Virus record (IMG/VR): IMGVR_UViG_3300027994_000004
Span: 1 to 41,308 of that record
Origin: a virus
DNA: 41,308 nucleotides
Strand: one strand, 5' to 3'
Part shown: piece after piece, positions 2,851-18,163 of the stretch
Numbering within the stretch: the first letter of the stretch is position 1
Layout: each line of letters begins with the position of its first letter
Notes under the pieces: generated by a model
Told to the model about the DNA's origin: nothing
Database searches by the model: none
The model's input: only the letters and a program-made list of their open reading frames with translations
Program-made: the position numbers and the translations under genes

Positions 2851-4032
2851 ATGGACTATTCTTTCTTAAGGCTATTACCCACATTTACAGAGGCTAAACA
2901 GATGATGTTAGACCCCAAGCAATCAACGCACCGTTATTACGATTGCATAGCCTTGCATCCAAACGAAACCTACCTTCAAATTACGGCATCTAAAACAGAT
3001 ATAGTCTTTAATGGCTCTTACAAGGTTTCAATAATCGACGGATGCGAAAATGAACTGAAAGACATTTCTGAAACAGTTACTATCTTTGAATTTTTTGATA
3101 GATTTGGAGTAGCACAGATAACATTCGAAATTGCAGGAATAGGACAAAGTTGGTACGGAATGCCTGTCTATTTGAAGTTTGAAAATACTGTAGGAATCGA
3201 AAGATTTTATTCAAACGCATTTGTGGTCACAGATGAAGATACAAACGAAACAGTAAGATTAAACTATAAGTCTTACGGATTCTTTCAGGGAACGGACTAC
3301 ACAAATTCTCCTTATCTTCAATCGATAAGGATTAAGGCAGAATTTCAGAACACCGATGATGCAACGGAAAACTCAACTTACACCCAAACAAGCGGTAATG
3401 TATTATCATTAAACCCTACAATCGTGTTTCCTGAAAAATTCTTAACCGATTACATAAACAATTTCACTTTTAAGGCTTTGGCGGTTGCCTTAAAGTCGGA
3501 TGTTTGCTATTTGGATTTGTATAGGGTAACTGACAGACCGCAATTAAAGAACGGAGAGCCTATAGGGAACAGCAATATGACCTCTTGTGAGTTTACCGCA
3601 CACCGTAATTTTGATGACAAGATTGATGATGTAAACCAACTAACGCCAGCGTTTAGTATTGTTTATAAATACCCAACAGGAACAATAAACACATCATTAA
3701 CCGAAACAAACAAAATATCAGTTACTTTCAACAAATCAATTGTTTTGGGTATTGGTCAATTAAAGATTTTTGGCGTTGGTGGTTTCCTTATAGCAACATT
3801 GACACAAAGTGATTTTACGGTAGTCGGAAACGGCATTGTTTCGGATGGATTTATTTCTGATTACATACCTGATTTCGGTGATTACTACATAACATTTACC
3901 GAGGGATTGGTTACCTCAATTTCAAACGAAAACATTTCAATAACGAATAATTCAGAATGGACTTTTAAATTTAGTGCCGGCGATTGGTTGGCTGATGATT
4001 TTGATTCTGATGATTTCCTAATATACGAATAA
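2851..4032 (+). CDS. Putative tail/baseplate structural protein
   Basis: 393-aa ORF in the tail module. Beta-rich and acidic at the C-terminus. Position only. Confidence 0.5.
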   Translation: MDYSFLRLLPTFTEAKQMMLDPKQSTHRYYDCIALHPNETYLQITASKTDIVFNGSYKVSIIDGCENELKDISETVTIFEFFDRFGVAQITFEIAGIGQSWYGMPVYLKFENTVGIERFYSNAFVVTDEDTNETVRLNYKSYGFFQGTDYTNSPYLQSIRIKAEFQNTDDATENSTYTQTSGNVLSLNPTIVFPEKFLTDYINNFTFKALAVALKSDVCYLDLYRVTDRPQLKNGEPIGNSNMTSCEFTAHRNFDDKIDDVNQLTPAFSIVYKYPTGTINTSLTETNKISVTFNKSIVLGIGQLKIFGVGGFLIATLTQSDFTVVGNGIVSDGFISDYIPDFGDYYITFTEGLVTSISNENISITNNSEWTFKFSAGDWLADDFDSDDFLIYE

Positions 4033-8530: not shown

Positions 8531-8550
8531 CTTTGTATTGAAATAATTTA

Positions 8551-8558
8551 TATATTTG
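8551..8558 (+). promoter_or_regulatory. Bacteroidota-type -7 box TAtaTTTG
   Basis: tatatttg in the intergenic gap, with TTTG at 8532-8535 as a possible -33 element. Confidence 0.5.
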
Positions 8559-8563
8559 CTCCA

Positions 8564-8635
8564 ATGAAAACAACAATGTTACATACTCAACGCATACTAG
8601 ACCCGATATTTTTATCAGGAGGTACAAGCGTATAG
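8564..8635 (+). CDS. Candidate leader peptide (23 codons) upstream of the tRNA array
   Basis: ATG AAA ACA ACA ATG TTA CAT ACT CAA CGC ATA CTA GAC CCG ATA TTT TTA TCA GGA GGT ACA AGC GTA TAG. Codons 5-14 include a cognate codon for each downstream tRNA. Confidence 0.4.
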   Translation: MKTTMLHTQRILDPIFLSGGTSV

Positions 8636-8663
8636 GTATATTTCAACATAATATATTTTACTA

Positions 8664-8691
8664 AACCTCCTTTAATCGGGAGGTTTTTTTA
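8664..8691 (+). terminator. Intrinsic terminator / attenuator hairpin 4 nt upstream of the first tRNA
   Basis: Stem aacctcc / ggaggtt with an 8-nt loop tttaatcg, followed by a T7 run. The 5' arm ACCTCCT (8665-8671) is also complementary to AGGAGGT at 8617-8623. Confidence 0.75.
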
Positions 8692-8694
8692 TTT

Positions 8695-8765
8695 CTAGTA
8701 GCGAAGTTAGGTTTCATGCTTCCCTTGGACGGAAGAGTACGCAGGTTCGAATCCTGCCTATTAGA
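8695..8765 (+). tRNA. trnP: tRNA-Pro (anticodon TGG), non-canonical D arm
   Basis: Acceptor ctagtag/ctattag (one G.U). Anticodon stem cttcc/ggaag with loop ctTGGac. T arm gcagg-ttcgaat-cctgc. I could not fold the D arm canonically. Confidence 0.6.
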
Positions 8766-8770
8766 CAAAA

Positions 8771-8842
8771 GGTTTATTGGTGTAATGGTTAACATTGGAG
8801 CTTGTCACGCTCTAGCAAAGGGTTCGATTCCCTTATAAACCG
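8771..8842 (+). tRNA. trnD: tRNA-Asp (anticodon GTC)
   Basis: Acceptor ggtttat/ataaacc. D stem gtgt/acat. Anticodon stem ggagc/gctct with loop ttGTCac. T arm aaggg-ttcgatt-ccctt. Confidence 0.85.
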
Positions 8843-8848
8843 CAATTT

Positions 8849-8922
8849 GTCCTAATAACTCAGTTGGTTAGAGTATCTCACTCATAATGAGGCGGTCGGT
8901 GGTTCGAAACCATCTTAGGACA
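8849..8922 (+). tRNA. trnM: tRNA with CAT anticodon (Met, or Ile2 if lysidine-modified)
   Basis: Acceptor gtcctaa/ttaggac. D arm actc-agttggtta-gagt. Anticodon stem tctca/tgagg with loop ctCATaa. T arm ggtgg-ttcgaaa-ccatc. Confidence 0.85.
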
Positions 8923-8927
8923 CAAAT

Positions 8928-9000
8928 TACAATATGATGCAATTGGTTAGCATAGCAGATTTTGACTCTGCCTATTTAGGTTCGAATCCTAATATTGTAA
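8928..9000 (+). tRNA. trnQ: tRNA-Gln (anticodon TTG)
   Basis: Acceptor tacaata/tattgta. D arm atgc-aattggtta-gcat. Anticodon stem gcaga/tctgc with loop ttTTGac. T arm ttagg-ttcgaat-cctaa. Confidence 0.85.
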
Positions 9001-9005
9001 CAAAT

Positions 9006-9079
9006 GGTGCTATTACGCTAAACGGTTAAGCGGTTGGACTGTGAATCCAATGATGCGAGTTCGATTCTCGTGTAGTACC
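9006..9079 (+). tRNA. trnH: tRNA-His (anticodon GTG) with genome-encoded G-1
   Basis: Acceptor gtgctat/gtagtac, plus an extra 5' G (9006) opposite discriminator C (9079). D stem cgct/agcg. Anticodon stem ttgga/tccaa with loop ctGTGaa. T arm gcgag-ttcgatt-ctcgt. Confidence 0.85.
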
Positions 9080-9087
9080 CGAAAAAT

Positions 9088-9169
9088 GCACGTGTGGCTT
9101 TATTGAGAATTGGCACATCTTGGCGGTTTAGACCCGTTAGCTTTGGAGGTTCAAGTCCTCTCACGTGTA
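9088..9169 (+). tRNA. trnL: tRNA-like gene, probable tRNA-Leu (anticodon TAG), 82 nt with an atypically long D region
   Basis: Acceptor gcacgtg/cacgtgt. Leu-like T arm ggagg-ttcaagt-cctct. Best anticodon arm ggcgg-ttTAGac-ccgtt. The extra length sits 5' of the anticodon arm, not in a variable arm. Confidence 0.5.
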
Positions 9170-9174
9170 CAAAA

Positions 9175-9246
9175 TTCAGTATAGTTTAACGGATAGAATT
9201 CAAGGTTACGACCCTTGCGATGGCAGTTCGAATCTGTCTACTGAAA
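9175..9246 (+). tRNA. trnR: tRNA-Arg (anticodon ACG)
   Basis: Acceptor ttcagta/tactgaa. D stem gttt/gaat. Anticodon stem caagg/ccttg with loop ttACGac. T arm ggcag-ttcgaat-ctgtc. Confidence 0.85.
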
Positions 9247-9257
9247 CAAAATATTTA

Positions 9258-9284
9258 AAGCCTTTCATCCGATAGGCTTTTTTA
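9258..9284 (+). terminator. Intrinsic terminator closing the tRNA array
   Basis: Stem aagcct/aggctt with a 10-nt loop, then a T run. Confidence 0.75.
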
Positions 9285-9298
9285 TTCAAAACATTTAC

Positions 9299-9306
9299 TA
9301 TATTTG
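9299..9306 (+). promoter_or_regulatory. -7 box TAtaTTTG
   Basis: tatatttg 35 nt upstream of ATG 9341. Confidence 0.5.
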
Positions 9307-17945: not shown

Positions 17946-17953
17946 TATATTTG
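17946..17953 (+). promoter_or_regulatory. -7 box TAtaTTTG
   Basis: tatatttg in the intergenic gap before the replication block. Confidence 0.45.
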
Positions 17954-17955
17954 CA

Positions 17956-17985
17956 ATAGCCATTTTAAATAGTGGCTATTTTTAC
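17956..17985 (+). terminator. Intrinsic terminator
   Basis: Stem atagcca/tggctat with a 10-nt loop and a T5 run. Confidence 0.65.
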
Positions 17986-18001: not shown

Positions 18002-18163
18002 ATGTTAACTATGGAAGTTAAAAAAGAGATTAGAAAAGATTTATACACGCAAACCGAATACTCTAAATTAATAGGTAAATCAGTTGCTTGGGTAAATAGA
18101 TTGATAAAAGAGCAAAAAGTAAATACCGTTACCGTAAATGGAGCTGTATTAATTAAGCTCTAA
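18002..18163 (+). CDS. Small HTH DNA-binding protein (53 aa, excisionase/MerR-like fold)
   Basis: Hand-translated MLTMEVKKEIRKDLYTQTEYSKLIGKSVAWVNRLIKEQKVNTVTVNGAVLIKL. Confidence 0.5.
   Translation: MLTMEVKKEIRKDLYTQTEYSKLIGKSVAWVNRLIKEQKVNTVTVNGAVLIKL

Follow-up and report, generated by a model that had tools for sequence, protein, structure and literature searches.

Leader-peptide attenuators of the classical kind (trpL, hisL, leuL, pheL and the multivalent thrL and ilvL) share a short open reading frame (ORF) rich in regulatory codons, an RNA of four regions able to adopt the alternative helices 1:2, 2:3 and 3:4, and an intrinsic terminator placed ahead of the regulated genes, with stalling of the ribosome favouring the antiterminator. 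A component of the translation apparatus can be governed by such means, as it occurs in Escherichia coli pheST, where the pheM leader peptide with its cognate codons controls an aminoacyl-transfer RNA (tRNA) synthetase by attenuation. The same elements, with the stalling step here proposed, are found in IMG/VR virus record IMGVR_UViG_3300027994_000004 (41,308 nucleotides (nt), hereafter the window), where a leader ORF and a predicted terminator lie at positions 8551 to 8694, between an endolysin gene and an array of seven tRNA genes. We estimate at about four in five the probability that this region is a ribosome-mediated leader-peptide transcription attenuator gating the phage tRNA operon, whose regulatory codons are those that its own tRNAs read. 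This reading is supported, on computational grounds, by the statistics of the codon match, by the covariation of leader codons and tRNA set and by the compensatory covariation of the putative antiterminator. The regulated genes are seven tRNAs and not the amino-acid biosynthesis or aminoacylation genes of all curated leader-peptide attenuators; this target is the point of novelty, and the mechanism is unaffected by it. Full-text literature searches, with subscription-only papers outside their scope, found no account of phage tRNA genes controlled by a leader peptide or an attenuator, and an earlier note on this DNA, which had read the sequence alone and suggested the attenuator, was likewise aware of none.

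The window is a phage genome of 41.3 kb with a guanine plus cytosine (GC) content of 33% and genes almost all on the + strand; an identical contig is present in Logan (SRR8536160_6210). As the earlier note had described, a tatatttg -7 box is followed by a 23-codon ORF (Table 1), the codons 5 to 14 of which include one decodable codon for each downstream tRNA (7/7 classes). All seven cognate codons stand within the first 14 codons of the leader and none in the last eight. Chance expectations were calculated from the codon usage of 50 ORFs of the window phage, with strict wobble or with lenient wobble, in which U34 reads whole family boxes. The probability of encountering all seven classes in 22 random codons is 2.6e-4 (strict) to 1.0e-3 (lenient), and inside 10 random codons it falls to 2.5e-6 to 1.5e-5. 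Among the 45,752 stop-free 10-codon windows in the six frames of the whole 41-kb window exactly one, starting at 8576, has the seven classes. The match, which the earlier note had proposed to set against random ORFs drawn from this codon usage, is significant on both counts. That note also held that four of the codons are minority synonymous choices; this is so for CGC (1.0 per thousand), CCG (3.9) and GAC (13.7, GAT being used at 46.7), and less so for CTA (9.8).

Six of the anticodons read beforehand are those assigned by ARAGORN (Pro-TGG, Asp-GTC, Met-CAT, Gln-TTG, His-GTG and Arg-ACG), and the seventh, TAG, belongs to a sub-threshold Leu-like gene that receives no call from ARAGORN at default settings. 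The gene has an anticodon loop U-U-UAG-A-C, a D region of 22 nt and a short variable arm. It is accepted as tRNA-Leu(TAG)-like because an almost identical copy, with loop C-U-UAG-A-C, is found in the metagenome contig L112 (minus strand, directly after tRNA-Arg) and because an ordinary tRNA-Leu(TAG) sits in the homologous Gln-His-Leu-Arg block of phage phi19:1. Regarding the start of the array, position 8695, as previously proposed, gives tRNA-Pro a perfect acceptor stem of 7 base pairs (bp), whereas both ARAGORN and Infernal place the 5' end at 8692, with two acceptor-stem mismatches. The suggestion that the CAT tRNA is a lysidine-type Ile2, which would also cover the ATA codons of the leader, is left without support, since ATA stands in corresponding places of the leaders of L112, phi19:1 and cassette A of phi17:2 (phi17:2-A), all from cassettes that lack a CAT tRNA; the codon that covaries is ATG.

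A BLAST comparison of the array with cultured phages returned tRNA pairs in Cellulophaga and Tenacibaculum phages and led to related cassettes. Eight further cassettes of the same anatomy were found: one each in the Cellulophaga phages phi19:1 and phi10:1, three in the Cellulophaga phage phi17:2 (A, B and C), two in the Tenacibaculum phage Gundel_1 (NC_062747.1, L111; hereafter Gundel-1 and Gundel-2), and one in L112 (Table 1). Their leader ORFs have 19-31 sense codons, excluding the start codon. Cassettes A, B and C of phi17:2 are arranged in tandem, each with its own promoter, leader and terminator, and are identical in phi4:1. The closest homologue of the window leader is that of L112, in which M5 of the window is replaced by I and D13 by L.

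The composition of the leaders follows that of the arrays. Taking as covariation score the fraction of leader codons decodable by the array, the true leader-array pairing was the best of all 40,320 permutations of eight cassettes (P = 2.5e-5) and, with the first 14 codons, the best of all 362,880 permutations of nine cassettes (P = 5.5e-6), the single tie in the latter arising from two arrays with identical tRNA sets. With lenient wobble, the tRNA classes present in their own leader amount to 7/7, 5/5, 5/5, 7/7, 5/5, 5/5, 7/7, 6/6 and 8/9. The cognate codons concentrate in the first 14 codons, and 6/9 leaders have no cognate codon later. L112 carries neither tRNA-Asp nor tRNA-Met, and its leader is likewise devoid of GAC and of an internal ATG. 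Among the cassettes of Pro-Gln-His-Leu-Arg type, Asp and Met codons occur only alongside the Asp and Met tRNAs (window), and Glu and TTA codons only alongside tRNA-Glu and tRNA-Leu(TAA) (phi17:2-A). Gundel-2, of this type too, has a leader with four Asn codons and no Arg codon and an array with tRNA-Asn and without tRNA-Arg. Covariation in relatives, which had been set beforehand as a refuting test together with the software anticodons and the random-ORF comparison, was thus found in the eight further cassettes, with the true pairing at the permutation maximum; the outcomes of the three tests favour the attenuator.

A second line of evidence comes from the RNA. In the window, a terminator scan found the T1 hairpin AAACCTCCT/GGGAGGTTT at 8663-8686 (-11.9 kcal/mol, z = -4.6), within a few bases of where the earlier note had placed a hairpin with a T7 run, and the fold of 8559-8695 reaches -27.7 kcal/mol (z = -3.76). 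The T-run ends 1-4 nt ahead of tRNA-Pro, depending on the tRNA-Pro start; the 4 nt originally given apply if the gene starts at 8695. T1 adjoins tRNA-Pro too closely for a promoter to fit in between, and any transcript that enters the array must therefore cross T1, as had been argued. Region 2 is, as the earlier note pointed out, the perfect complement of ACCTCCT at 8665-8671, and among duplex partners of the terminator 5' arm it ranks first (-11.6 kcal/mol, against a mean of -3.6 for shuffled sequences; p = 0.002). The AGGAGGU:ACCUCCU helix forms in the window folds when the terminator 3' arm is withheld, and it has a positional and compensatory counterpart in 9/9 cassettes.

Every cassette folds into a 1:2 hairpin and a strong terminator (3:4) of -11 to -17.5 kcal/mol adjoining the first tRNA; in phi19:1 the terminator T-run ends 3-4 nt ahead of tRNA-Pro. 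When the 3' arm is withheld, the terminator 5' arm pairs across the cassettes with a purine-rich segment inside the ORF, as UGGAAGGAUUU with AAAUCCUUCCA (11 bp) in Gundel-2, CAGGAUC with GAUCCUG in phi17:2-C and AGCAGGA with UCCUGCU in Gundel-1. When duplexes were tested against shuffled controls, the strongest partner of the 5' arm mapped to ORF nt 49-63 in 9/9 cassettes, with p-values of 0.001-0.1 singly and a Fisher combined p of 2.5e-11. The 5'-arm sequences vary among cassettes (CCUCC, GCUCUCU, UCCUUCC, GAUCCUG, GUCCUGC and others), yet the position of the partner is fixed, which denotes compensatory covariation of helix 2:3. In 7/9 cassettes the stop codon is located 6-13 nt past region 2, and hence a terminating ribosome would cover region 2. 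Other roles considered for these elements were rejected: AGGAGGT as a Shine-Dalgarno site is followed by no start codon, and Bacteroidetes do not use such sites (PMC6847099); direct blocking of T1 by a ribosome at the stop codon faces a 27-nt gap, which is too long; and T1 as a plain lysis-operon terminator is at odds with the conserved promoter that intervenes.

The leader travels with the tRNAs. Inspection of 80 IMG/VR endolysin relatives (best 84% amino-acid identity) to about 4 kb downstream of the endolysin gene gave no tRNA array or leader in any of them (0/80), and the array is accordingly an accessory cassette at that site; about the leader itself these relatives are uninformative. L099, a relative of 37 kb, has the identical 24-nt promoter block after its endolysin gene and keeps T2 and the next promoter, with about 170 unrelated nt in between. 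Similarity between L099 and the window stops directly past the -7 box, which assigns the leader to the tRNA cassette instead of the backbone. Likewise, the promoter regions of phi10:1 and phi19:1 are 95.5% identical over 66 nt, the similarity stopping exactly at the ATG, and their cassettes differ; in these two independent comparisons the cassette edges fall at the -7 box or at the ATG. The promoter block recurs ahead of other cargo in six IMG/VR contigs, and the slot from promoter to terminator appears to accept different cargoes; in L099 (5865-6070) it holds a 27-codon ORF, MKHNSEQTRLWLLDLKVKREIILTEYK, instead of a tRNA cassette. The anatomy, the codon-anticodon match and its covariation in nine cassettes, the position and compensation of helix 2:3 and the leader as part of the cassette are established.

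Further searches were made at several levels. The protein index returned as exact or near relatives only the same phage and L095-L100, which have no arrays. A degenerate leader pattern and a tRNA-Asp pattern had 0 matches in IMG/VR, a pattern of T2 plus the next promoter (P2) had 0 matches, and the tRNA-Gln pattern and the GSDGLIG-stop pattern matched only phi19:1 and phi4:1 themselves. The leader peptides, compared by tblastn with 50,697 phage records, retrieved only themselves and near-identical genomes. L113 and L114, which are two of the three metagenome pattern matches, were discarded as out-of-frame chance matches.

Table 1. Coordinates of the features of the window and composition of the eight further cassettes; leader peptides are given up to the stop codon.
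Feature	Position	Strand	Remarks
M15 peptidase (endolysin) gene	ends 8530		upstream edge of the locus
Promoter block GTATTGAAATAATTTATATATTTG, including Bacteroidetes-type -7 box	8535-8558	+	block kept in L099 and six IMG/VR contigs
-7 box TATATTTG	8551-8558	+	perfect match to TAnnTTTG
Predicted transcription start, leaderless or 1-nt-leader messenger RNA (mRNA)	8563-8564	+	placed by the -7-to-start spacing
Leader ORF, 23 codons, MKTTMLHTQRILDPIFLSGGTSV	8564-8635	+	homologous ORFs in L112 and phi17:2-A
Sensor codons 5-14: ATG TTA CAT ACT CAA CGC ATA CTA GAC CCG	8576-8605	+	every tRNA matched
Helix 1:2, sensor strand 8590-8608 with 3' part of ORF 8613-8631	8590-8631	+	minimum free energy folds
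Region 2 AGGAGGT, putative antiterminator strand in ORF, ending 9 nt before stop codon	8617-8623	+	duplex test
AU-rich spacer hairpin inside antiterminator helix	8634-8658	+	folds
Predicted intrinsic terminator T1	8663-8690	+	region 3 8663-8671, loop, region 4 8678-8686, T7 8684-8690
tRNA-Pro (TGG)	8692-8766	+	ARAGORN; Infernal 37.6 bits
tRNA-Asp (GTC)	8771-8843	+	ARAGORN; Infernal 58.4 bits
tRNA-Met (CAT)	8849-8923	+	ARAGORN; Infernal 64.1 bits
tRNA-Gln (TTG)	8928-9001	+	ARAGORN; Infernal 64.0 bits
tRNA-His (GTG)	9007-9080	+	ARAGORN; Infernal 54.2 bits
tRNA-Leu(TAG)-like, oversized D region	9088-9169	+	Infernal 27.6 bits (Rfam gathering score 29)
tRNA-Arg (ACG)	9175-9247	+	ARAGORN; Infernal 55.5 bits
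Terminator T2, closing the tRNA transcription unit	9257-9284	+	fold -9.5 kcal/mol; kept with next promoter in L099
-7 box TATATTTG of next promoter P2, downstream edge of cassette slot	9299-9306	+	conserved in L099
phi19:1 cassette			leader MNNNTIHIQRLPQPKRFGEFAVYGSDGLIG (begins MNNNTIHIQRLPQPK); tRNAs Pro, Gln, His, Leu-TAG, Arg
phi10:1 cassette			leader MLKKWSYSCFSYSFKNGEVIL, core WSYSCFSYSF; tRNAs Tyr, Trp-like, Phe, Ser-TGA-like, Cys
phi17:2-A			leader MKIQRLHLQELEQPIISGGTGV, core QRLHLQELEQP; tRNAs Pro, Glu, Gln, His, Leu-TAG, Leu-TAA, Arg
phi17:2-B			leader (M)QLTKTGITVIDKTKGARAYLGDTVIG, rich in T, G, I, V, D, K, A, R; tRNAs Ala, Lys, Ile, Gly, Met, Asp, Thr, Val, Arg-TCT, Met
phi17:2-C			leader MKTNYCTYNNSNWSFSYDTGSVCTLGSDGLIG, core NYCTYNNSNWSFSY; tRNAs Tyr, Ser-TGA-like, Ser-GCT, Asn, Trp, Phe, odd tRNA with UUGCAA loop
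Gundel_1 cassette 1			leader MKTKLYSYSCFSSWFKNRAG, core YSYSCFSSWF; tRNAs Tyr-like, Trp-like, Phe, Ser-TGA, odd (Cys-like), Ser-GCT
Gundel_1 cassette 2			leader MKTNNLHIQQNNLPVFLEGFLYM, core NNLHIQQNNLP; tRNAs Pro, Gln, Met, Asn, Leu-TAG
L112 (metagenome)			leader MKTVILHTQRIQLPELYSGGTGV; tRNAs Pro, Gln, His, Arg and the Leu-TAG-like gene of the window

The consensus TAnnTTTG of the Bacteroidetes sigma-A promoter comprises T-12, A-11, T-8, T-7, T-6 and G-5, together with a weaker TTTG at -33, and in Flavobacterium johnsoniae the -7 element spans -12 to -5 with transcription starting 4-5 nt downstream (PMC6847099). The window has a -33-like TTTG at 8532-8535, with a spacer to the -7 box of just 15 nt. 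The ATG follows the -7 box after 5 nt in the window and after 4 nt in seven further cassettes (8/9 in total), matching the distance between -7 element and start site in F. johnsoniae; by this spacing the A of the ATG would be +1, which suggests that the leader mRNA is leaderless. Leaderless mRNAs account for about 5% of the mRNAs of Flavobacterium psychrophilum, in which there are also strong clues to leader-peptide attenuation upstream of amino-acid biosynthesis operons (PMC9723704). The host machinery would therefore be compatible with the model.

From the anatomy described we infer the start site, the translation of the leader, the read-through dependent on stalling and the direction of regulation, and propose the following sequence of events. 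Transcription would begin at, or 1 nt before, the ATG at 8564, giving a leaderless mRNA whose 23-codon leader would be translated as RNA polymerase approaches T1. If all seven classes in codons 5-14 are decoded fast, the ribosome would reach the stop codon (8633-8635) and mask region 2, the 3:4 terminator would form and transcription would end 1-4 nt before tRNA-Pro. If there is no translation, region 1 would pair with region 2 and the terminator would form as well. A stall at any sensor codon, when the charged tRNA is scarce, would leave region 2 free to pair with the emerging region 3; the 2:3 pairing would prevent the terminator, and the seven tRNAs would be transcribed. As the phage tRNAs build up, decoding would become faster and termination would resume, a negative feedback on tRNA supply. 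Since the products of the array would speed the decoding of the very codons that sense them, the loop would be homeostatic. Possible triggers are host tRNA depletion or cleavage, a rising demand from late genes and amino-acid starvation, and the model is compatible with each.

On a wider scale, we regard it as likely that phages of Flavobacteriia carry mobile, self-regulating tRNA cassettes, in which a leaderless mini-ORF would act as a codon 'barcode', switching the cassette on upon slow decoding and off once the gap is filled, and which may scale up to an 'all-20-amino-acid' leader. The slow decoding could stem from host tRNAs that are scarce, degraded or cleaved by a defence nuclease. Concerning the larger leaders, a conserved ORF of 46-53 codons, for instance MTTIQNIHQDLTTIMGRALNTWSQLLCGDVILGFSAYNNEPKQGGTEV, is found about 155-240 nt upstream of large tRNA arrays in big phages of Flavobacteriia type, its carriers being IMG/VR contigs with 8-25 tRNAs (L088 4695-4841, L090 5427-5573, L087 517-657; also L081, L083, L084, L086 and L089). 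All 20 amino acids are present in 46/47 of its homologue clusters, against a random expectation of 1.2-1.5%, and the lone His moves between variants (NIHQ...PKQGG vs NIQQ...PKHGG). Its C-terminus, GGTEV, resembles the GGTSV of the window leader, and a terminator follows downstream. This ORF could be the same kind of sensor extended to all 20 amino acids ('all-20'). Its control of the array is uncertain, since the stretch from its terminator to the first tRNA contains one or two TTCGTATATT motifs that are possibly promoters.

A number of observations weigh against the attenuator. The phi19:1 leader contains AAC AAT AAT and its array has no tRNA-Asn. The tRNA-Pro and tRNA-Gln genes of phi19:1 are separated by 58 nt (L107 2440-2498) in which no tRNA was detected and which might be the remnant of a lost tRNA. 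The Gundel-2 leader keeps CAT in the absence of tRNA-His. In phi17:2-B there is no ATG at the predicted transcription start, 7-8 of the 9 classes are covered, and the leader has a Tyr codon while tRNA-Tyr sits behind the next terminator. Part of the match relies on sub-threshold or atypical tRNAs, namely the Leu-like gene of the window, the Trp-like and Ser-like genes of phi10:1 and the Tyr-like, Trp-like and Cys-like genes of Gundel_1 and phi17:2. The nine cassettes correspond to three or four homologous leader types plus several changes within types, and the independent events are therefore fewer than nine. The two leaders ending in GSDGLIG have their stop codon 29-33 nt beyond region 2, and only a minority of mRNAs (about 5%) in Flavobacteria are leaderless. 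Finally, the antiterminator helix has few base pairs (7 bp in the window) and a lower stability than the terminator: naked RNA favours the terminator fold by 5-17 kcal/mol, a margin that drops to 0.4-9 kcal/mol once the first 42 nt are masked. Of the switch as first drawn by the earlier note, the alternative pairing is predicted, but it is the weaker one thermodynamically; antitermination would have to act kinetically, as in classical attenuators.

These points have to be set beside what other explanations would leave unaccounted for. Covariation strictly demonstrates only codon-anticodon complementarity, and the leader RNA is structured, so a direct recognition of tRNAs may be considered, in which leader codons would pair with anticodons in the manner of a T-box and choose between terminator and antiterminator with no translation involved. 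Such a sensor would not need contiguous in-frame codons, an ATG 4-5 nt past the -7 box or a stop codon 6-13 nt past region 2 in 7/9 cassettes, nor open frames of 19-31 codons kept in a sequence of 33% GC. The codons moreover include wobble partners (CAT for GUG, TAT for GUA, TTT for GAA), and Rfam gives no T-box, Stem I or specifier-loop match for the leaders of the window, phi19:1 and phi10:1; we hold direct sensing to be very improbable. Equally slight, or slightly more so, are the chances of a promoter-proximal terminator that is leaky or is overcome by a phage or host antitermination factor in the style of lambda Q, the ORF being incidental. The succession of promoter, transcript of about 100-130 nt, terminator and cargo does resemble lambda pR'-6S-tR', and the same promoter type with a leader of about 100 nt and a terminator precedes protein genes in L103, L105 and L106. 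Neither the codon-tRNA match and its covariation, nor the fixed position of the antiterminator strand within the ORF, nor the joint movement of leader and array behind unrelated promoters would be explained in this way.

The ORF could also encode a functional small peptide, with T1 as its terminator and the tRNAs expressed by constitutive read-through. The C-terminal motifs are indeed conserved (SGGTxV and GSDGLIG, each before the stop codon), and the relatives of 46-53 residues in large-phage contigs are conserved as peptides. However, the N-terminal halves are wholly different by type (HTQRILDP, WSYSCFSYSF, TKTGITVIDK), exactly as the tRNA sets differ, and the C-terminal motifs fall on the very RNA strands that form the pairing with the terminator, so that their conservation is explained at the RNA level. 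We give this peptide as little credit as the Q-like or leaky terminator. Mere coincidence, with T1 as the ordinary terminator of the lysis genes upstream and the ORF as a chance open frame, would agree with the terminator found right after the endolysin gene in L001 and L004 and with the 80 endolysin relatives devoid of array and leader within about 4 kb. Of the explanations weighed here this one has the smallest chance and is strongly disfavoured already, in view of the P-values of the codon match, unique-window, duplex and permutation tests, of the eight further cassettes of the same anatomy and of the conserved promoter between the endolysin stop codon and the ORF. Attenuation mediated by the translating ribosome is the reading retained.

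Other features were observed around the promoters and cassettes. At 17946-17985 of the window the -7 box TATATTTG and the usual caat spacer are followed at once by a hairpin, ATAGCCAttttaaataGTGGCTAT, with a T5 run; a small ORF begins about 30 nt further downstream, at 18012. The promoter block GTATTGAAATAATNTNTATATTTG is present in L103 (467-600), L105 (minus strand) and L106 (539-680), followed by a non-coding leader of about 100 nt; these leaders, with no obvious leader ORF, end in a strong terminator, directly after which comes a homologous protein gene. The leaders of the cultured phages are unannotated in their GenBank records except for phi17:2 gp077, called a hypothetical protein; gp077 (L110 2572-2691) corresponds to the cassette B leader ORF, its start having been called too far upstream. 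In the same phage gp078 (L110 4513-4614) overlies a tRNA-Ser(TGA)-like gene homologous to phi10:1 L109 1643-1730, and the two copies differ by compensatory changes in the anticodon stem. In Gundel_1 an HNH endonuclease gene (L111 3386-3892; region 3300-3952) is located between the second leader-terminator and its tRNA-Pro, and an apparent 5' fragment of tRNA-Pro, tttctagtggtc, directly follows that terminator. By this insertion the array would be split from its attenuator by a homing endonuclease.

Both the regulation of phage tRNA genes and the reasons for which phages carry them are debated; proposals include that they compensate for codon usage, replace host tRNAs that have been degraded or allow an escape from anticodon nucleases. 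If the attenuator model is true, the phage would measure tRNA demand and supply tRNAs on demand, and the competing hypotheses would be directly testable. The leader would then be a sequence-only readout of the tRNAs that a cassette is 'meant' to hold, an aid in annotating degenerate phage tRNAs, and leader-peptide attenuation would extend to RNA-gene targets, to phages of Bacteroidota and to probably leaderless mRNAs. The element could also serve tRNA-responsive synthetic circuits as a compact, naturally occurring part. Experiments are feasible, since hosts are available for the four carriers that are in culture (phi19:1, phi10:1, phi17:2/phi4:1 and Gundel_1).

Among known systems, lambda pR'-tR' (6S RNA) with Q shares with the phage cassettes a phage promoter closely followed by a terminator that has to be overcome, but Q is a protein acting at the qut site, and that system has no leader ORF, codon rule or alternative helices. 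T-box riboswitches share the sensing of tRNA status by codon-anticodon pairing and a terminator/antiterminator switch before translation-related genes. They differ in binding uncharged tRNA directly by means of a single specifier codon and in having conserved Stem I and T-box motifs, undetected in the phage leaders, where the sensor codons form a translatable ORF. In the leaders of the window, phi19:1 and phi10:1 no T-box riboswitch was matched in Rfam at E <= 1 and no Rfam leader family at threshold, the best leader matches being Phe_leader in the window (23.4 bits, gathering 55) and Trp_leader in phi19:1 (18.3 bits, gathering 41).

The mechanism proposed here resembles above all the classical attenuators, in particular the multivalent thr and ilv leaders, and pheST. 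With pheST the phage cassette has in common that a component of the translation apparatus is controlled; it differs in that pheST, a chromosomal system, encodes a synthetase and answers to one amino acid only. Whereas a classical leader presents a run of one codon, in the phage leader each of 5-9 tRNA species is represented by one or two codons, and the multivalent thr and ilv leaders likewise mix codons for several amino acids. Unlike classical attenuators, the phage system is phage-encoded, has a probably leaderless mRNA and moves as a cassette. Classical attenuators regulate enzymes, whereas the phage cassettes would regulate tRNAs; the output would directly relieve the stall, closing a loop from tRNA to decoding and back to tRNA.

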